IMG/VR virus record: IMGVR_UViG_3300011840_000036
Location: 1 to 48,038 of that record
Reading direction: 5' to 3' (one strand)
DNA length: 48,038 nucleotides
DNA from: a virus
Taxonomy: Duplodnaviria > Heunggongvirae > Uroviricota > Caudoviricetes
Shown in pieces: positions 6,783 through 17,741 of the stretch. The notes beneath the pieces were generated by a model. It was not told the DNA's origin and made no database searches. It saw only the letters and a list, made by a program, of their open reading frames with translations. The position numbers were made by a program, and so were the translations under genes. Each line of letters begins with the position of its first letter. Position 1 is the first letter of the stretch.

Positions 6783-6853
6783 AAATTGGTCAAGTATTTT
6801 TGTTTGTCATGACTAACATTTTGGGCAACCAAAAAGATAACGCATTGATTGCG

Positions 6854-7261
6854 TTATCTTTTGTTTGTTCGTTGACGGGCTTTTAATAATTCTTCAAAGA
6901 GTTTGTTGAAATTTTTTACTCGGGCGCGCATCTCGGTGAGCTGAGCATCCTGTTCTGATTCAGGCAATGCATTAAAAAGCTCAAGGAGCTCAAGTTCTTT
7001 GGGGGATAGAGCAACTGGCTCCTCAATAGGTGGTGATGGCAGCTTGTCTTCATCGCCAAATAGAATCCATGTTGGCGAGCACTGCAGTACTTTGCTGAGG
7101 GCAAAAAGATTCTTTCCTGTAGGTTCGCTATCATCCCGCTCCCATTGTGAAACCGATACGTGAGAAATTTTCAGGGCTTTAGCAAGAGACCTTTGGGTGT
7201 ATTTGAGGTTTTTTCGGCGATATCTAATGCGTTCGCCAATGGTTAAATTTTTTGTATCCAT
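6854..7261 (-). CDS. dicA: DicA-type HTH (XRE) immunity repressor, no S24 peptidase domain
   Basis: 135-aa protein MDTKNLTIGERIRYRRKNLKYTQRSLAKALKISHVSVSQWERDDSEPTGKNLFALSKVLQ... matches E. coli DicA as I recall it (recalled, not searched); divergent from a Cro-like gene. Confidence 0.9.
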   Translation of the reverse strand: MDTKNLTIGERIRYRRKNLKYTQRSLAKALKISHVSVSQWERDDSEPTGKNLFALSKVLQCSPTWILFGDEDKLPSPPIEEPVALSPKELELLELFNALPESEQDAQLTEMRARVKNFNKLFEELLKARQRTNKR

Positions 7262-9122: not shown

Positions 9123-9576
9123 GCAGCAAATCCGACAGGTCTGCCGCCAGTGCATGGACCGCTGCCGGGCGGGTGAAACATGGCCTCCGGACCTGGCTGA
9201 GTTTGTGGCGCTGATTTCGGAAAGCGGGGCCAATCCATTTGGTCTGACGGTGGATGCTGTGATGGAGGAGTACCGCCGCTGGCGCAATGAGTCCTGGCGA
9301 TACGACGGAAGTGATAAGTACCCTTGGTCTCAGCCTGTGCTGTATCACATTTGCCTCGAGATGCGTTCAAAGGGGATTGAACGCCAGATGACCGAAGGGG
9401 AATTAAAACGGCTTGCAGAACGGCAGCTGACGAAATGGGCAAAGCATGTTAGTCACGGCCTGAGCGTTCCGCCAGTACGGCGACAACTGGCGGCACCAAA
9501 ACGCCCGTTGGGACCAACGCCAATTGAGTTGCTGAAACAGGAGTATGAACGCCGGAAAGCGGCTGGTTTTGTTTGA
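8911..9576 (+). CDS. Replication protein P-like helicase loader
   Basis: C-terminal half aligns by eye with lambda P ([13 protein letters not shown]..., YPWSQ..., [14 protein letters not shown]...). Candidate starts at 8911 (AGGGGG RBS), 9034 and 9115 (ATGACTGA overlapping the O stop). Confidence 0.65.
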
Positions 9577-9610
9577 GTTGAGAAGTAATTTTTACCGGGA
9601 GGAAATTTTA

Positions 9611-10357
9611 ATGGAAACCGTTTTTGATGCACTGAAAGCAATGGGAAAAGCCACGTCGGTAGAGCTGGCTGCGCGACTTGATATCAGTCGTGAAGAAGTG
9701 CTGAACGAGCTGTGGGAACTGAAAAAGGCTGGCTTCGTTGATAAAAGCGTATACACCTGGCGTGTGGCTTATAACAACGTTCAGCAGGAACAGCCAGCGC
9801 CGGCAGAACTGTCGGAAGAAACCACCACGGCAACAGTCGCTAAAATTTCGGAGTGCGATTTAACTGCGACGGTTGAACAACGCGGACCACAAACGGCTGA
9901 TGAGCTGGCTACGTTGTTCGGTACAACATCACGCAAAGTGGCTTCAACGCTGGCAATGGCAATCAGCAAAGGTCGTCTGATTCGTGTAAACCAGAACGGT
10001 AAATTTCGTTACTGCATGCCGGGCGATAAGTTACCAGCAGAGCCGAAATCCGTGCCGGTAACGGAAAATGATGGTAAAGCCTTTCCTCAGCCAGCCGGTG
10101 TTGCGTTACCAGTACAGGAAGCTGCAACACAGGAAGATATTAAAACAGAAACTGTGGCTGATATTGTGCAATCGTTGCCATCGTTTACTGAAACGCGAGC
10201 GGATGACCTGGTTTTACCATCGCTGCATATGGCAAACCGCGAATTGCGTCGGGCGAAAAGTCATGTCCAGAAGTGGGCGCGAGTCTGCGCCGCGCTGCGG
10301 GAGCTGAACAAGCACCGGGATATGGTTGCCGGGATTTGTCGGAAGCCCGGGCAATGA
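9611..10357 (+). CDS. Winged-helix DNA-binding protein (DUF1627-like prophage protein)
   Basis: Start at [30 protein letters not shown]... with GGGAGG RBS; N-terminal wHTH followed by a Q/E/T-rich low-complexity region. Confidence 0.55.
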
Positions 10358-11024
10358 GCGGATGGTGCAGGCCTGAAATTATGATACTAACAATGAAGGT
10401 AAAATGCATTGGCAGTCTGATTGGTCGTAGTGAGGCGGCGGTCAGGATGAAAGCCCGGGTTAAGGGAATAAGCCTGATTCTGCGGGGTAATTTTCACCAG
10501 TCAACAAAATATCCGTAGCGCGATAACGGTCAAAAATCATGGCGCTGACACTTTTGTGCCACTGGAGATGACTGTACCTAAGTTCAGGGGAGAAGAACAC
10601 GTCCGGTGGGATGGTCGGGCCAGATTTAAAGGGCAGGTCATGGCTCCAGCCAGTACGCTGGCAATGGAGGCTGCCTGGCTGGAAATTGATATGGGAACCA
10701 CGCCACTCAGGGATTTACTGCCGGTCCAGAGAATAAATTCCTGTTACGGTTACACCACTGTGATCTTGCAAGTGCAGGAAAGTAGGTCTACACGGTAACG
10801 CGAGTGCGTGTAACTTTTGATGTTATTTCCGTAGAAACACCGGACAAATTTTCGCTGGCAGGTCATGCTGAAGGTATAATTCTGCAGATTATGGACAATT
10901 ACGGATATCCGGCAAGAGCCGGAAAAAGCATGCCGCCTTTAATTCTCAGTGGAAGATGGACTTGATTATACTCATTGCATTGTCAGAAATAGTTATCCAT
11001 TAAAGGCTGGCTATTCCAAACAGG

Positions 11025-11052
11025 ATGTTGATTACAAAAATGTAATCAACAT
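11025..11052. repeat. Perfect 28-bp palindrome ATGTTGATTACA-AAAA-TGTAATCAACAT (candidate operator or hairpin)
   Basis: 12-bp perfect inverted arms with a 4-nt spacer in the AT-rich region about 165 bp upstream of the 11217 gene. Confidence 0.6.
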
Positions 11053-11216
11053 GTAAGGTTTATACTCTTCAATATGCGTATAATTTTCCTTATTTTGTTA
11101 GCTTTAAATAACAAGCTATGCACGAGGTAAAGTCGGATAAGTTTATCTGGATGTAATATATATTATTTGTAGTGTTTATAACTTTATTTCATGATAACCA
11201 ATAAAAGGAGTTTTTT

Positions 11217-11975
11217 ATGAGGAACATAATGGCAGGTTTTTTAATATTTCTGTCTTCTGCTGCTTATGCTGATATCAATCTGTATGGTCCTGGTGGCCCG
11301 CATACAGCCTTGCTTGATGCAGCCAAACTTTATGCCGAAAAAACAGGTATTATAGTGAACGTTCATTACGGCCCACAGAACAAATGGAATGAAGATGCCA
11401 AAAAAAATGCAGATATCTTGTTTGGCGCATCAGAACAATCTGCTCTGGCTATCATTCGGGACCATAAAGACAGCTTCAGTGAAAAAGATATTCAGCCTCT
11501 TTATCTGCGAAAAAGTATTTTACTGGTAAAGAAAGGTAATCCTAAAAATATCCGGAGTATTGACGACCTGACCAGACCCGGGATTGGCGTAATTGTTAAT
11601 GATGGTGGTGGTACCAGTAATACATCAGGCACTGGCGTCTGGGAAGATATTGCCGGACGTAAAGGGAATATAGAAACTGTCGCCGCAATCCGAAAAAATA
11701 TTATTTTATATGCGCCCAATAGCGGAACTGCACGTAAGGCTCTTGAGAATCAGCCTGAAGCAGATGTCTGGATAACCTGGGCTGACTGGGCAGCCAGTAA
11801 TCCAGAAATTGGTGATGTCGTGGAAATAGCGCCAGACTACGTGATATGGCGTGATATGAACATTACAGTACGTCAGGATGCAAATGATGAAACCCGTCGA
11901 TTTGCAGAATGGCTACAAACCGATGAAGCGGCGCCTGCATTCAAAAAATATGGCTGGACCAGGAAAGGCACTTGA
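11217..11975 (+). CDS. Orphan periplasmic substrate-binding protein (ModA-like type 2 PBP fold) with signal peptide; moron
   Basis: 252-aa ORF; N-terminal MAGFLIFLSSAAYA signal-like segment; overall resemblance to ModA-type binding proteins (C-terminal ...FKKYGWT); AT-rich with its own promoter-like region and terminator; no permease or ATPase partner. Confidence 0.7.
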   Translation: MRNIMAGFLIFLSSAAYADINLYGPGGPHTALLDAAKLYAEKTGIIVNVHYGPQNKWNEDAKKNADILFGASEQSALAIIRDHKDSFSEKDIQPLYLRKSILLVKKGNPKNIRSIDDLTRPGIGVIVNDGGGTSNTSGTGVWEDIAGRKGNIETVAAIRKNIILYAPNSGTARKALENQPEADVWITWADWAASNPEIGDVVEIAPDYVIWRDMNITVRQDANDETRRFAEWLQTDEAAPAFKKYGWTRKGT

Positions 11976-11981
11976 CATCCT

Positions 11982-12010
11982 CCACGTCCTTCAGGACGTG
12001 GATTCTTTTT
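11982..12010 (+). terminator. Rho-independent terminator after the binding-protein moron
   Basis: CCACGTCC-ttca-GGACGTGG perfect 8-bp stem followed by ATTCTTTTT. Confidence 0.7.
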
Positions 12011-12096
12011 CCGGATGCCGCGCCAGCGGCATGTAGGGGCAGCTCACAAAACGGAAAAAATTGTACGCTAAGCCTCGCCAGGTGAACTGAATTCAT

Positions 12097-12122
12097 TCCG
12101 ATATGGGAATTCCCATATCGGA
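12097..12122. repeat. Perfect 26-bp palindrome TCCGATATGGGAATTCCCATATCGGA
   Basis: Spacer-less inverted repeat centred on GAATTC, upstream of the hok/mok locus. Confidence 0.6.
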
Positions 12123-12256
12123 CGAAAACGGCTTGCTGTAACGGCAGAGTTAAGTAGAATTGCTGCGGGTGCTTGAGGCTATCTGCCTCGGGCATGAACA
12201 CCAACGGCAGATAGATAAAAGCCCCACCCGACTATAAATCGAAGTGAGGCCCCTAT

Positions 12257-12469
12257 ATGCTCGTCACATATAGATTGCCTCTTACGGACCGAAAGGTCAA
12301 GGAGAAGCAGGCTATGAAGCAGCAAAAGGCGATGTTAATCGCCCTGATCGTCATCTGTTTAACCGTCATAGTGACGGCACTGGTAACGAGGAAAGACCTC
12401 TGCGAGGTACGAATCCGAACCGGCCAGACGGAGGTCGCTGTCTTCACAGCTTACGAACCTGAGGAGTAA
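12257..12469 (+). CDS. mok-like overlapping reading frame (modulator of killing) of a hok/sok-type locus
   Basis: 70-aa ORF starting 57 nt upstream of hok and read in the same frame through hok, as in hok/mok loci. Confidence 0.45.
   Translation: MLVTYRLPLTDRKVKEKQAMKQQKAMLIALIVICLTVIVTALVTRKDLCEVRIRTGQTEVAVFTAYEPEE
12314..12469 (+). CDS. hokD: Hok/Gef family type I toxin (HokD/RelF-like)
   Basis: 51-aa product MKQQKAMLIALIVICLTVIVTALVTRKDLCEVRIRTGQTEVAVFTAYEPEE is a typical Hok peptide (single TM segment, conserved C-terminus); followed by a terminator. Confidence 0.8.
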   Translation: MKQQKAMLIALIVICLTVIVTALVTRKDLCEVRIRTGQTEVAVFTAYEPEE

Positions 12470-14352: not shown

Positions 14353-14730
14353 ATGACTGAACGCATAGAATTTGTTTTGCCTTACCCGCCGACGGTGAAT
14401 CCCTACTGGCGACGTCATGGCAATACGTATTTCATCTCGGAGGCCGGAAAGCGTTATCGCCGTGATGTGGCGCTAATTGTTCGCCAGCAGCGGTTGAAAT
14501 TAAACCTGTCCGGAAGGCTGGCGATAAAGATTATTGCAGAGCCACCGGATAAGCGCCGTCGTGACCTGGACAACCTGTTGAAAGCGCCACTGGATGCGCT
14601 GACGCATGCCGGACTACTCATAGACGACGAGCAATTTGATGAAATCAATATTGTGCGTGGTCTGCCTGTTTGCGGTGGGCGACTGGGTGTGAATATATTC
14701 GTAATAAGAGGATGTAATGATGTTGCGTGA
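14353..14730 (+). CDS. rusA: Holliday junction resolvase RusA
   Basis: 125-aa ORF; motifs [10 protein letters not shown] and [19 protein letters not shown] match the RusA family by eye. Confidence 0.85.
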
Positions 14731-15091
14731 TATTCAGCTGGTTATGGAGCGGTGGGGAGCATGGGCAGCAAATAATCATGAAGATGTAACATGGCCCTCG
14801 ATAGCTGCTGGTTTTAAAGGATTAATCCCGGCTAAAGTGAAATCACGTCCTCAGTGTTCTGATGATGACGCCATGATAATTTGTGGCTGTATGGCACGAT
14901 TAAACAAGAATAATCAGTATTTGCACGATTTGTTGGTGGATTATTACGTAGGTGGAATGACATTTATGGCTCTTGCACGTAAGCATAGATGTTCTGATGG
15001 GCTTATTGGTAAAAGACTTTATAAAGCAGAAGGTATTATTGAAGGAATGCTTATGGCTCTGAATGTCAGGTTAGATATGGATATGCGGTAG
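14717..15091 (+). CDS. Late-gene antitermination protein Q (QuuD-like small Q family)
   Basis: 124-aa [39 protein letters not shown]... closely resembles DLP12 QuuD as recalled; located just upstream of the late region. Confidence 0.8.
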
Positions 15092-15241
15092 GGATATATA
15101 GTGACTATGGTTATGTTTTCTATGTTTATAATCAATGTGTTTATTTTGTGGTCGTGAATTTTATGGAAAGTAAACAAAATGTTGCCAGGTGAATTGAAAA
15201 TATTGATAATCAATCTTCATCATTAAATAAAAGGAGTGTTT

Positions 15242-16060
15242 ATGTGGATTGTGTTAGCACTGTCACTGTCAACTCTCAGTTGGCATAAGGTAGTGGCTTT
15301 TTCATTGTTGACGGTGTCTGTTGTCCTGGCTGTGCTTAATGATATTATTGATTGGCCTGTGTTGTTTCTTGTTGCTACAATCGTTTTTTTTATTATTTTG
15401 AAGTTCAACTGGAAATATAACGCCTGGGCTAAATCCATATATGAAGCTGGCATAGTTTTATCAGCCATAGCATTATCTTTCCATTTATGGCCAGGGTTTC
15501 ACAATCCTGTAGTGCTAAAGTCTGTTACTGTCGGACCTCAAAGCACTCCCTATACAATGTATTTTAATTTTGATAAAGCACTGGTGCCATTTTTGTTAGT
15601 CCTGTGTACAGCTTCTTTGTTTAAAAAAGAAGTGAAATCAGAAGTATCTTTGTGGAAGTGGGGGGGGCTGTTGCTCTCTGTTCCTCTTATCCTGTTTTTG
15701 GCTGTTTTTTTTGGTGGGTTAAAGCCAGAGATTCATTTTCCTGAGTGGTTGCCAGAGTTTATATTGGCTAATTTGTTTTTTGTGTCTCTGGCAGAGGAAT
15801 CATTATTTAGAGGGTATATTCAATCACGGCTATCAGAAGTGACGTCTCCATTGGTTGCGTTAATTGTGGCGTCTTTGTTGTTTGGTTTTTTTCACTATTC
15901 AGGTGGTGCTTTACTTGTATTATTTGCCACGTTATCTGGTGTTGTGTATGGATTGTCATGGATGTGGAGTGGGCGCTTGTGGGTGGCAACCCTTTTCCAT
16001 TTTGGTCTGAATCTGTGTCACTTGTTATTCTTTACCTATCCATTCTTAAAATATAATTGA
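15242..16060 (+). CDS. CPBP-family (CAAX protease/Abi-type) intramembrane metalloprotease; moron
   Basis: Multi-pass membrane protein with EESLFRGY and FGFFH motifs typical of the CPBP/Abi family; AT-rich; AAGGAG RBS; followed by its own terminator. Confidence 0.75.
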   Translation: MWIVLALSLSTLSWHKVVAFSLLTVSVVLAVLNDIIDWPVLFLVATIVFFIILKFNWKYNAWAKSIYEAGIVLSAIALSFHLWPGFHNPVVLKSVTVGPQSTPYTMYFNFDKALVPFLLVLCTASLFKKEVKSEVSLWKWGGLLLSVPLILFLAVFFGGLKPEIHFPEWLPEFILANLFFVSLAEESLFRGYIQSRLSEVTSPLVALIVASLLFGFFHYSGGALLVLFATLSGVVYGLSWMWSGRLWVATLFHFGLNLCHLLFFTYPFLKYN

Positions 16061-16694: not shown

Positions 16695-17741
16695 ATGGTT
16701 AATACTGTAAAAATATCCAGTTGTGAGTTAATCAACGCTGATTGCCTGGAATTTATCCAGACCTTACCGGAAAACTCTGTCGATTTGATAGTCACAGACC
16801 CGCCATACTTTAAAGTGAAGCCCGAGGGCTGGGATAACCAGTGGAAGGGTGACGATGATTACCTGAAGTGGCTGGACCAGTGTCTGGCGCAGTTCTGGCG
16901 GGTACTGAAGCCCGCCGGAAGTCTTTACCTGTTCTGTGGGCATCGTCTGGCATCTGATATCGAGATCATGTTGCGTGAACGTTTCAACGTGCTTAACCAT
17001 ATCATCTGGGCGAAGCCGTCCGGACGCTGGAACGGGTGCAGGAAGGAAAGCCTGAGGGCATATTTCCCGGCAACAGAGCACATACTGTTTGCTGAACATT
17101 ACCAGGGGCCATATCGGCCAAAAAATGATGGCTATGTGGCAAAGGGGCGCGAGCTTAAACAGCATGTCATGGCTCCGCTGATTTCTTACTTTCGTGATGC
17201 GCGTGAATCACTGGGGATTACGCCGAAACAGATAGCGGAAGCCACCGGAAAGAAAAACATGGCTTCGCACTGGTTTGGTGCCAGCCAGTGGCAGTTACCG
17301 AACGAAGCTGATTACAGAAAGCTGCAGGCGTTGTTTGCGCGTGTTGCAGCAGAAAAACATCAACGCGGAGAACTGGAAAAGCCACACCACCATCTGGTCA
17401 GCACATACAGCGAACTGAACCGGCAATATGTCAGCCTGCTGGAAGAGTATAAATCTTTGCGGCGTTATTTTTCCGTATCGGCTGCCGTTCCTTATACGGA
17501 TGTCTGGACGCACAAACCTGTGCAGTATTATCCGGGTAAACATCCGTGTGAGAAGCCAGCAGATATGTTGCGGCAGATAATTACAGCCAGCAGTCGTCCG
17601 GGGGAACTGGTTGCAGACTTTTTTATGGGATCGGGGGCGACTATAAAGGCTGCGCTCTCTCTGGAACGTAGAGCTATTGGTGTAGAGCTGGAAACGGACA
17701 GGTTTAATCAAACGTTTGATGAAATAAGAAACAATAGTTAG
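16695..17741 (+). CDS. Orphan DNA methyltransferase (beta-class N6-adenine/N4-cytosine type)
   Basis: 348-aa ORF; DPPY motif near the N-terminus (LIVTDPPYF) and FxGxG motif near the C-terminus (DFFMGSGAT); no adjacent restriction endonuclease. Confidence 0.85.
   Translation: MVNTVKISSCELINADCLEFIQTLPENSVDLIVTDPPYFKVKPEGWDNQWKGDDDYLKWLDQCLAQFWRVLKPAGSLYLFCGHRLASDIEIMLRERFNVLNHIIWAKPSGRWNGCRKESLRAYFPATEHILFAEHYQGPYRPKNDGYVAKGRELKQHVMAPLISYFRDARESLGITPKQIAEATGKKNMASHWFGASQWQLPNEADYRKLQALFARVAAEKHQRGELEKPHHHLVSTYSELNRQYVSLLEEYKSLRRYFSVSAAVPYTDVWTHKPVQYYPGKHPCEKPADMLRQIITASSRPGELVADFFMGSGATIKAALSLERRAIGVELETDRFNQTFDEIRNNS

Follow-up and report, generated by a model that had tools for sequence, protein, structure and literature searches.

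Why would a tailed-phage genome encode a secreted binding protein alone, and does the inverted repeat that precedes its gene have a function? The viral DNA that raises these questions (48,038 nucleotides, the whole of which we call the window) contains an intact open reading frame at 11217–11975 on the + strand (252 amino acids plus the stop); the initial annotation described its product as an orphan ModA-like binding protein with an operator-like palindrome upstream. We assign the locus, with a probability of about 85%, to the virulence-associated gene paa (adfO), carried in a cassette of ~1 kb inside a lambdoid prophage. The observation of a lone binding-protein gene is real but already known, so the presence of paa in the window brings no new biology; the unexplained remainder is only a small inverted repeat at the edge of the paa cassette. 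The gene is a routine virulence marker for porcine ETEC and EPEC and, as part of OI-57, is used in the risk typing of human STEC.

Identity and family of the encoded protein

The protein has 100% identity to WP_001815900.1 (“AcfC family adhesin Paa”), which is AdfO of the O157:H7 island OI-57, and matches a protein cluster of the same name (P0001) at 99%. At the nucleotide level, the window is 99.8% identical to loci in O103, O121 and O45 genomes that are annotated “paa: AcfC family adhesin Paa” and 98.9% identical to PPompW prophages annotated Paa/AdfO; PHROG 11834 is also matched (2.5e-176). These identities assign the lone “binding protein” gene to paa (adfO), a long-known, prophage-borne gene for adherence and colonisation in pathogenic E. 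coli. The novelty that the initial annotation saw in an orphan prophage binding protein falls away because this identity had not been recognised. No NCBIfam model scores above its cut-off for Paa, and the RefSeq name is evidently the product of a rule other than an NCBIfam model.

By inspection, residues 1–18 (MRNIMAGFLIFLSSAAYA, followed by D19) constitute a Sec-type signal peptide that ends in AYA; the cleavage site is of the signal-peptidase-I type, with no lipobox cysteine, and leaves a mature protein of ~26 kDa whose first residue, D19, pairs in the alignment with residue 2 of PEB3 as crystallised (construct 2hxw). Nearly the entire mature sequence matches Pfam SBP_bac_11 (PF13531; E = 1.6e-34, residues 20–247 against profile positions 1–226 of 227), and the matches to PEB3 (3fir, E = 4.1e-82) and AcfC (4jb7, 1.5e-81) extend over residues 11–248, with roughly half of the residues identical (~50–55%). 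Paa has all of the invariant columns (48/48) of a 14-sequence family alignment that ranges from Escherichia to Campylobacter and Burkholderia and itself contains the protein of the window as well as the closest cluster representative; the invariant motifs are LYGPGGP near the mature N-terminus, the NTSGTGxWED loop, SG at 169–170 and DxWxTW at 183–188. We conclude from these alignments that Paa is a member of the PEB3/AcfC/Paa family, Sec-exported and with the two-lobed type-2 binding-protein fold; the initial description of a secreted, stand-alone type 2 binding protein is borne out, and profile searches did not place the protein in an unrelated family.

“ModA-like” does not apply in the family sense. 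The modA models score far below their cut-offs (TIGR01256, 18.6 bits vs 62.5; NF007958, 12.1 vs 253), as do the sulfate-binding models (NF008022, 22.7 vs 288; TIGR00971, 21.6 vs 155.5; NF008106, 19 vs 308 bits), so membership in either group was rejected; the match to 1sbp is local only (E = 5e-4), and the matches to sulfate-binding proteins are weak and confined to residues 96–204.

The paa cassette and its prophage slot

The element that hosts paa is a lambdoid prophage of the PPompW/OI-57 type, and the gene lies, as initially described, between replication genes upstream and Hok/Sok downstream, in the manner of a moron with its own terminator. Copies on IncF plasmids (86–90% nucleotide identity) match only from ~11013–11031 through ~11979–12002, and in alignments of cassette copies the flanks to the left of ~11013 and to the right of ~12035 are unrelated. 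The unit common to prophage and IncF-plasmid copies, at ~11013–12035 on the + strand, consists of a leader, paa, a terminator and a 3' hairpin; judged from these alignments, the mobile unit is this cassette of ~1.0 kb, and its definition as the form in which paa travels in both prophages and IncF plasmids is a modest gain of the analysis. The “30 percent GC island” of the initial annotation shrinks to the 204-bp leader (11013–11216, 26.5% G+C); the coding sequence has 43.7%, the cassette 41.2%, the whole flagged span 40.7% and the window 52.8%.

The expression signals of the cassette can be read in part. A strong Shine-Dalgarno sequence, AAGGAG, is read directly at 11205–11210 (+ strand), 6 nt before the ATG, and AAAAGGA is kept in all cassette lineages. 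The promoter-like sequence noted initially is reduced to a candidate −10, TATAAT (11079–11084, + strand), that is invariant in 8/8 cassette lineages but has no recognisable −35: a relaxed −35/−10 scan of 11000–11200 found nothing, and a consensus scan found no promoter from 10972 to the ATG of paa. The sole + strand hit to a consensus sigma-70 promoter, at 10943–10972, lies within the upstream fimbrial fragment and outside the cassette, and was rejected as a promoter in the paa leader. Rfam has no match to the leader (11013–11216) at E <= 1, so no riboswitch or sRNA was found there. The strong terminator described initially is present (11981–12010, + strand): it starts 6 nt past the stop codon and has a 9–10 bp G+C-rich stem (11981–12002) followed by the T-run TTCTTTTT, with a hairpin energy of −16 kcal/mol (z = −5.5). 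Beyond it, at the cassette's 3' edge, a 7-4-7 hairpin (ATGCCGC GCCA GCGGCAT, 12014–12031; −16.4 kcal/mol, z = −2.2) is kept in 3/4 plasmid lineages, with divergence from the window thereafter. At the plasmid copies, the cassette brings no regulator gene with it, and the chromosomal homologues of paa in E. albertii, Citrobacter and Edwardsiella are preceded by unrelated sequence. We know of no one who has mapped a promoter or regulator of paa, widely used as it is as a marker.

On its left, the cassette adjoins a fragment of a chaperone-usher fimbrial subunit gene (10559–11012, + strand) that is truncated at both ends and, in three-frame translation, contains frameshifts and stops. The fragment has 85% nucleotide identity to intact genes for 195-aa fimbrial subunits located upstream of an usher gene, and the intact homologue matches Pfam Fimbrial; the RefSeq “fimbrial protein” pseudogene annotation spans about 10523–11056, and the homology to intact genes stops at 11012. 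On its right is a hok/sok type I toxin-antitoxin locus (12167–12469, + strand; Rfam sok RF01794, 103.9 bits; Pfam HOK_GEF, 2.9e-23) that is annotated hokD/gef in related records and is absent beside the plasmid copies of paa; it is the “ckf” partner of adfO in OI-57 and belongs to the phage backbone, not the cassette.

The DUF1627 gene is common to 2,700 genomes, only about 570 of which continue into the paa region, and in the Rac-like prophage of NCTC9082 the slot is occupied by DUF977 and the IteAS defence system instead of paa. From these comparisons, the slot after the replication genes is a variable cargo position in related prophages; because the cassette adjoins a dead fimbrial fragment in such a slot, the paa insert behaves as a moron. 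The O157 copy is ~98% identical to the window in the upstream fimbrial-fragment segment and ~92% identical in the DUF1627 gene.

The inverted repeat at the 5' edge of the cassette

A perfect 12-4-12 inverted repeat is located at 11025–11052: ATGTTGATTACA (11025–11036), AAAA, then TGTAATCAACAT (11041–11052), with arms that are 100% complementary. It ends 164 nt before the ATG, close to the ~165 bp given initially; the AAAA spacer is not self-complementary, so it is an inverted repeat rather than the perfect 28-bp palindrome that had been claimed. The repeat is also 12 nt inside the 5' edge of the cassette and 27 nt upstream of the TATAAT. If arms of 12 nt or more and loops of up to 10 nt are counted, the window has three separate perfect inverted repeats (at 6832, 11025 and 12097), compared with an average of 0.04 per window in first-order Markov random sequences; a chance origin of the 12-4-12 repeat is unlikely. 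As RNA, it would fold as a hairpin of −14.3 kcal/mol (z = −5.5).

Several readings of the repeat were rejected. A repeated phage operator is ruled out: neither an arm nor the dyad recurs in the window more than chance would allow, and E. coli genomes contain only 1–2 places each that match the repeat with its junction. An intrinsic terminator is ruled out, as no T-run follows and no A-run precedes the repeat. Fimbrial coding sequence is ruled out as well: homology to intact fimbrial genes ends at 11012, and the rest of the annotated pseudogene is frame continuation. Comparison by eye with CRP, Fur, IHF, PhoP, OmpR and LysR (T-N11-A) motifs gave no convincing match except a generic T-N11-A fit, which is uninformative.

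A 50-nt query that spans the junction and the repeat finds the repeat 100% identical in 576/605 E. coli records (1–2 copies each), and the number of genomes matched is about the same as the number with paa; because the surrounding DNA is itself 98–100% identical in ~570 genomes, the identical 50-mer carries little information. The inner core, ATTACA-AAAA-TGTAAT (11031–11046), is kept in 7/8 cassette lineages, and the core plus the right arm is the longest invariant block in a leader that is otherwise ~10–15% divergent among the eight lineages, an invariance that is partly imposed by the search pattern used to gather the lineage sequences. Uninterrupted arm pairing reaches 6 bp or less in five lineages, whereas the other three have arms of 12, 10 and 9 bp, and the outer arms show no compensatory changes across the eight; in this comparison, the full 12-bp symmetry appears specific to the prophage-borne allele. 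The operator look noted initially therefore survives in the perfect dyad (12-4-12) but not in the diverged copies, where symmetry beyond 6 bp is neither conserved nor compensated. A role as an operator is possible but unproven.

We favour a promoter-upstream element at the 5' edge of the cassette. With the TATAAT as a hypothetical −10, the repeat would be located at about −66 to −39 (a position that is itself hypothetical because the TATAAT has no −35), and the 16 bp of the conserved core may be the binding site of a host regulator or serve as an A-tract UP-like element. The competing reading, to which we allow somewhat less than an even chance, is that the repeat has no regulatory function: it would be a recombination or mobilisation relic of the joining of the cassette to the fimbrial fragment, or a short conserved core that chance has lengthened, and would look invariant because the prophage cassette is near-clonal. 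Its distance of only 12 nt from the junction (11012/11013), the second hairpin at the 3' edge of the cassette, the single occurrence in the window, the restriction of full symmetry to the prophage allele (10 bp in one plasmid lineage and 9 bp in another, 6 bp or less elsewhere, without compensation) and the 98–100% identity of the surrounding DNA in ~570 genomes agree with this reading. The rarity of a 12-nt perfect repeat (0.04 expected per window) and, allowing for the ascertainment effect, the long invariant block of core and right arm argue against it. A further modest gain of the analysis is a conserved cassette leader that carries an unexplained dyad.

Partners, function and comparison with known systems

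A motif screen found no permease or ATPase in the 48 kb, as the initial annotation had stated, and no permease partner came to light in the wider search: no ABC partner is located beside homologues in Edwardsiella or Francisella, and a screen of 32 GTDB loci by motif and hydrophobicity flagged none next to the matching ORF, which the screen did not recover in one further locus, L017. A 5-TM protein encoded at 15236–16060 was considered as a permease and rejected; it is CPBP/Rce1-like, not an ABC component. The partners suggested at family loci are a chemoreceptor (in V. cholerae, the chemoreceptor gene acfB lies just ahead of acfC, with a gap of 6 nt), secondary anion transporters and ECF sigma modules. 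That no screened family member is encoded with an ABC transporter supports sensing over transport and may ease the “adhesin or binding protein” ambiguity.

These loci bear directly on whether Paa, as an orphan binding protein, could supply an ABC importer encoded by the host (chromosomal permease and ATPase) or sequester a nutrient anion, which we regard as improbable. Transport proteins of the ModA, Sbp and CysP types have the SBP_bac_11 fold as well, anion binding would suit the invariant loop motifs, and a complete ABC operon ends ~690 bp upstream of the Enterobacter homologue; however, that operon includes a binding protein of its own and a long spacer separates it from the paa homologue, a permease/ATPase pair adjoins none of the screened family loci, the suggested partners are of the other kinds just listed, and the phenotypes on record (adherence, colonisation and chemotaxis) do not include nutrient uptake (PMC8565820, PMC5976639).

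Published work on the family points to the host surface and to the periplasm. For alleles that match that of the window exactly or almost exactly, PMC8565820, citing Batisson 2003 and Ho 2008, describes weaker adherence and colonisation of paa and adfO mutants, and the adfO mutant is pleiotropic, with several proteins less secreted (PMC8565820); transcripts of the O157 copy occur in lysogens, and bovine rumen and rectal contents induce it (PMC8524897). PEB3 is listed as a binder of 3-phosphoglycerate and phosphoenolpyruvate (PMC8835900). AcfC is periplasmic and required for mucin chemotaxis, and in ELISA the recombinant protein binds sulfated glycans (heparin, chondroitin sulfate) and also mucin (PMC5976639). 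Published work names Paa and PEB3 adhesins while AcfC failed to show adhesion, so the roles of the family members may differ.

Is Paa, then, a true adhesin, that is, an exported and possibly type 2 secreted protein that, displayed or released, directly binds host-cell or mucus glycans as the first step of attachment? The name in RefSeq and the literature, the reduced adherence reported for the mutants and the glycan and mucin binding of recombinant AcfC are what such a protein would lead one to expect, and we give the idea some weight while doubting it: inspection of Paa finds a signal-peptidase-I site alone, with no lipobox, beta-barrel or C-terminal sorting signal, AcfC and PEB3 are reported to be periplasmic and AcfC did not adhere to Caco-2 or HT-29 cells (PMC5976639), and the phenotype of the adfO mutant is pleiotropic, with several proteins less secreted (PMC8565820).

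The function that we propose for Paa is indirect. Paa would act in the periplasm, possibly partly released, and would bind a small anionic ligand or a sulfated, mucin-derived ligand; it probably promotes colonisation via sensing or chemotaxis-type signalling, and would be neither a transporter component nor a classical anchored adhesin. We extrapolate this anion- or mucin-sensing mechanism from homologues of ~50–55% identity. A more specific version, which we consider unlikely, is that Paa is a periplasmic ligand sensor, carried by phages and plasmids, that couples to host chemoreceptor or envelope signalling as AcfC appears to do with AcfB. It would guide the lysogen to mucus-derived compounds that are sulfated or phosphorylated, and a host regulator specific for the ATTACA-N4-TGTAAT dyad at the cassette's edge would gate its expression. 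If this were true, no binding protein of the PEB3/AcfC/Paa family would ever work with an ABC importer, and the partners of these proteins would be chemoreceptors, YeiH-like (PF03601) or SLAC1/TehA-type anion transporters, or ECF sigma/anti-sigma modules.

Among known systems, Paa/AdfO of O157:H7 OI-57 is the closest: the gene order (replication genes, DUF1627, fimbrial pseudogene, paa, hokD/ckf) is the same, the adfO-ckf linkage has been described for OI-57 (PMC8565820), and nothing of substance differs, with the window backbone nearest to O103/O121/O45 (99.8%) and PPompW of O145:H28 (98.9%), not O157. PEB3 of Campylobacter jejuni (2hxw, 3fir, 3fjg, 3fjm, 3fj7) is a full-length homologue of equal length that shares the mature N-terminus D-[IV]-N-L-Y-G-P-G-G-P-H and the NTSGTGVWED loop and is likewise a stand-alone gene product called an adhesin; unlike Paa, it is chromosomal, not phage-borne, and an N-glycoprotein with a DFNVS sequon where Paa has DSFSE. 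AcfC of Vibrio cholerae (4jb7) is also an exported full-length homologue without an ABC partner, encoded on a horizontally acquired virulence island and a colonisation factor (PMC5976639); however, acfC is co-transcribed with acfB (6-nt gap), whereas paa is a monocistronic gene that has a leader and a terminator to itself, and AcfC, unlike the Paa and AdfO mutants, showed no adhesion phenotype. ModA, Sbp and CysP share the Pfam family or clan (SBP_bac_11) and the type-2 fold, but Paa is far under each family cut-off, has no adjacent permease/ATPase and has a different biology. The last comparison is with Hendrix-type morons (lom, bor), from which paa differs in that its promoter is not defined (a lone −10) and its insert is composite, a dead fimbrial fragment plus a plasmid-circulating cassette; like them, it is an extra gene between essential modules, with lower G+C and its own terminator, expressed in lysogens (PMC8524897) and present or absent among otherwise related prophages.

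Identity of the exported protein

The sole long ORF in the region (11217-11975, plus strand; 252 aa) carries an AAGGAG Shine-Dalgarno sequence (11205-11210, plus strand) upstream of its ATG and encodes a protein that the initial annotation regarded as ModA-like. In profile searches, it matches Pfam SBP_bac_11 over its full length (1.6e-34) and PHROG 11834 (2.5e-176), a PHROG annotated as of unknown function; membership in the ModA family is ruled out by its score for NCBIfam modA TIGR01256 (18.6 bits; cut-off, 62.5), and Sbp/CysP membership is ruled out in the same way (e.g., Sbp NF008022, 22.7 bits; cut-off, 288). The description as ModA-like gives way to membership in the PEB3/AcfC/Paa family: C. 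jejuni PEB3 (3fir, 4.1e-82) and V. cholerae AcfC (4jb7, 1.5e-81) are matched in the PDB, with alignments that span practically all of the mature protein. The 1.6-kb region shares 99.8% identity with loci annotated as 'paa: AcfC family adhesin Paa' in O103:H2, O121, and O45:H2 genomes and 98.9% with the PPompW lambda-like prophages of O145:H28 (described in PMC8112680), in which the gene is annotated as 'Paa/adherence factor AdfO'; this DNA comparison with annotated loci settles the identity of the gene as paa, and the translation is that of WP_001815900.1 (100% identity). By all sequence criteria tested, the gene product is a member of the PEB3/AcfC/Paa family and, indeed, the named Paa protein itself.

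As read from the sequence, the N-terminus is a Sec signal peptide ending in an A-x-A cleavage site, MRNIMAGFLIFLSSAAYA, after which the protein continues as DINLYGPGGPH; in the alignment to the PDB, D19 stands opposite residue 2 of 2hxw, the crystallised PEB3 construct.

The prophage slot and the limits of the paa cassette

The window is a lambdoid prophage, in which genes for a CI-like repressor (6854-7261, minus strand) and for YdaT-like, DnaT-domain replication, lambda-P-like, and DUF1627 proteins precede the paa region, and hok/sok (sok at 12167-12316, Rfam sok 103.9 bits, with a Pfam HOK_GEF match), DUF968, RusA, and antiterminator Q follow it. Of complete E. coli genomes, 2,700 show homology to the DUF1627 gene (9545-10357, directly upstream of the insert); in most it ends near 10328, and in only about 570 does it extend into the paa region. 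In the paa-less Rac-like prophage of NCTC9082 (L166, 5189-9207), the slot after DUF1627 is occupied by DUF977 and the IteA/IteS (IteAS) anti-phage system. These two observations identify a variable cargo position, so paa qualifies as a moron located between replication genes and hok, as had been proposed; because paa is found here and IteAS in NCTC9082, the same slot hosts either virulence or defence cargo, depending on the prophage. The end of DUF1627 homology near 10328 marks the left edge of the slot.

The DUF1627 protein may bind DNA, because it has an N-terminal winged-helix domain (HTH_20, 1.3e-5). Between the end of its homology and the fimbrial fragment lies a 54-aa ORF (10354-10518; RefSeq 'hypothetical protein') that may be another fragment imported with the insert. 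Elsewhere in the window, a 274-aa ORF with five TM segments (15236-16060; CPBP/Rce1-like, PF02517) lies in a stretch of ~33% GC directly after antiterminator Q (14717-15091), and a DNA methylase gene (16695-17741) comes next; a different Q region occupies this position in the closest chromosomal relative (L001), and the ORF looks like a second moron.

Upstream, paa is adjoined by a RefSeq 'fimbrial protein' pseudogene (about 10523-11056). Its intact relative (about 267 E. coli records, 85% identity) encodes a 195-aa subunit; in its chaperone-usher operon, this gene follows that of a PapB-like regulator and precedes those of a further subunit, the usher, and the chaperone. The window is homologous to it from 10559 to 11012, ending about 13 codons short of the intact stop. 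Diverged copies of paa carried by IncF plasmids (E. coli and E. albertii) share with the window only a stretch that begins at about 11013-11031 and ends at about 11979-12002 (DNA, 86-90% identity; protein, 92-94% in the three copies checked); they are bordered on both sides by sequence unrelated to the window, namely RepFII/yacAB, an autotransporter gene, IS110, or an antirestriction gene. Because fimbrial homology ends and the plasmid matches begin there, 11012/11013 is a recombination junction; read from these alignments, a dead fimbrial fragment lies to the left and a ~1.0-kb paa cassette to the right, and their juxtaposition may point to an origin on a plasmid or fimbrial island.

The cassette comprises the leader, the gene, its terminator, and a second small hairpin. 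The claim of a strong terminator was borne out: a G+C-rich hairpin (11981-12002, plus strand; −16 kcal/mol, z = −5.5) starts 6 nt past the stop codon and is directly followed by TTCTTTTT. Just past it, at the 7-4-7 hairpin ATGCCGC-GCCA-GCGGCAT (12014-12031), the prophage and three of the four plasmid copies part ways. Hairpins of the form ATG...CAT, then GTARGG, occur at both cassette edges; this likeness may be a coincidence.

The inverted repeat in the leader

The perfect 12-4-12 palindrome claimed about 165 bp upstream of paa is present: the arms of ATGTTGATTACA-AAAA-TGTAATCAACAT (11025-11036 and 11041-11052) are 100% complementary, and its 3′ end is 164 nt from the ATG. Perfect inverted repeats whose arms reach 12 nt or more and whose loops do not exceed 10 nt occur at three separate places in the window (6832, 11025, and 12097) vs a mean of 0.04 in Markov-1 random sequences, so the repeat at 11025 is more than chance. 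Its being part of the fimbrial gene is ruled out, fimbrial homology ending at 11012. The repeat at 6832-6862 (13-5-13, beginning AAAAGATAACGCA) overlaps the 3′ end of the CI-like repressor gene and is probably an immunity-region operator or terminator; that at 12097-12122 (13-0-13, TCCGATATGGGAA/TTCCCATATCGGA, with a central EcoRI site; −19.2 kcal/mol as RNA, z = −5.4) lies between the 3′ edge of the cassette and hok/sok, just outside the segment common to the window and the sokW loci of 933W-type phages.

A 50-nt segment containing the junction and the repeat shows no mismatch in 576 of 605 E. coli records and is present in 604 genomes vs 577 for the full paa region (one or two copies per genome); this invariance says little, because the flanking DNA is 98-100% identical in the same genomes. 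Eight cassette lineages more than 4% apart, collected from plasmids, metagenomes, and viral contigs, tell more. The core, ATTACA-AAAA-TGTAAT, is retained in seven (E. albertii has ATTGCA), although this is partly an ascertainment effect because the search pattern fixed part of the core; the right arm, TGTAATCAA, is retained in all eight. The outer left arm is variable, the arms measuring 12, 10, and 9 bp in three lineages and pairing without interruption over 6 bp or less in the other five, and no compensatory changes between the arms occur in the eight. That the repeat, which starts 12 nt inside the 5′ edge of the cassette, is a relic of the cassette junction is a serious alternative to a regulatory site.

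The supposed island of ~30% GC is confined to the 204-bp leader (26.5%; the CDS has 43.7% and the whole flagged span 40.7% vs 52.8% for the window), and promoter scans of the leader found no consensus sigma-70 promoter; the promoter-like sequence claimed for it reduces to a lone TATAAT (11079-11084). This hexamer lies 27 nt downstream of the repeat and is invariant in the eight lineages. If it is the −10 element, the repeat occupies positions of about −66 to −39, the zone of UP elements and of upstream activator/repressor sites. The window holds no second copy of an arm or of the dyad beyond chance, the leader matches no Rfam family, no regulator gene travels with the cassette in the plasmid paa neighbourhoods, and the upstream regions of chromosomal homologues (E. 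albertii, Citrobacter, Edwardsiella) are unrelated to that in the window. Thus, the operator proposed for the palindrome lacks support over its full 28 bp; for the 16-bp core, an operator role is possible.

Family context and relation to known adfO loci

Members of the PEB3/AcfC/Paa family occur in Enterobacterales, Aeromonas, Vibrio, Francisella, Helicobacter, and Campylobacter, with more distant members in Burkholderiales and Flavobacteriia. A screen by motif and hydrophobicity, in which ten neighbouring proteins were also checked against Pfam, covered about 33 loci from a GTDB scan and three individual loci and found no ABC permease/ATPase pair beside the family gene. In V. cholerae, the chemoreceptor gene acfB is 6 nt upstream of acfC. 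Secondary anion transporters, either PF03601 (YeiH-like; L032, L033, L039, and L040) or SLAC1/TehA (L036), recur beside family genes in Limnobacter, Flavobacteriia, and Burkholderia, and ECF sigma/anti-sigma modules with Lipoprotein_15 genes recur in Vibrio and Endozoicomonas (L027-L029, L031, L034, L035, L037, and L038). The distant members in these loci (41-49% identity) are directly beside and co-oriented with the transporter or ECF sigma genes, and none (L027-L029, L031-L040) has an ABC permease or ATPase gene beside it, which hints that the family binding proteins partner with non-ABC systems.

In the family alignment, the invariant residues cluster in Gly/Ser-rich loop motifs (LYGPGGP, GASEQS, NTSGTGxWED, and SG) that, on the model of other binding proteins with this fold, are candidates for an anion-binding cleft. 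The title of the AcfC entry 4jb7 describes a complex with D-aspartate. We infer that Paa acts after export by binding a small anionic or mucus-derived ligand; it would aid colonisation via sensing or signalling, not transport, and is probably no classical anchored adhesin. For AcfC, published work gives a periplasmic location, binding of sulfated glycosaminoglycans and mucin in ELISA, a requirement in mucin chemotaxis, and an absence of cell adhesion (PMC5976639); 3-phosphoglycerate and phosphoenolpyruvate are listed as ligands of PEB3 (PMC8835900).

The initial observation is confirmed and its interpretation partly supported. The small points that remain of interest are a defined paa cassette with a conserved leader and dyad, its joining to a dead fimbrial gene, and the finding that the family loci screened consistently lack ABC partners. 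The gene itself has long been known as virulence-associated: AdfO (z2053), from O-island 57 (OI-57) of O157:H7, resembles porcine EPEC Paa and promotes adherence, adfO mutants show less adherence and lower secretion of several proteins, and adfO is always accompanied by ckf (z2054), a Hok-like killing factor (reviewed in PMC8565820); the EDL933 copy of paa is induced in rumen and rectal contents (PMC8524897), and swine E. coli diagnostics routinely use paa for typing (e.g., PMC12218006). The protein is the named Paa itself, and the literature covers both the prophage type and the adfO-ckf pairing, so the finding is already known; the order in the window, paa then hok/sok, is exactly the adfO-ckf pair reported for OI-57.
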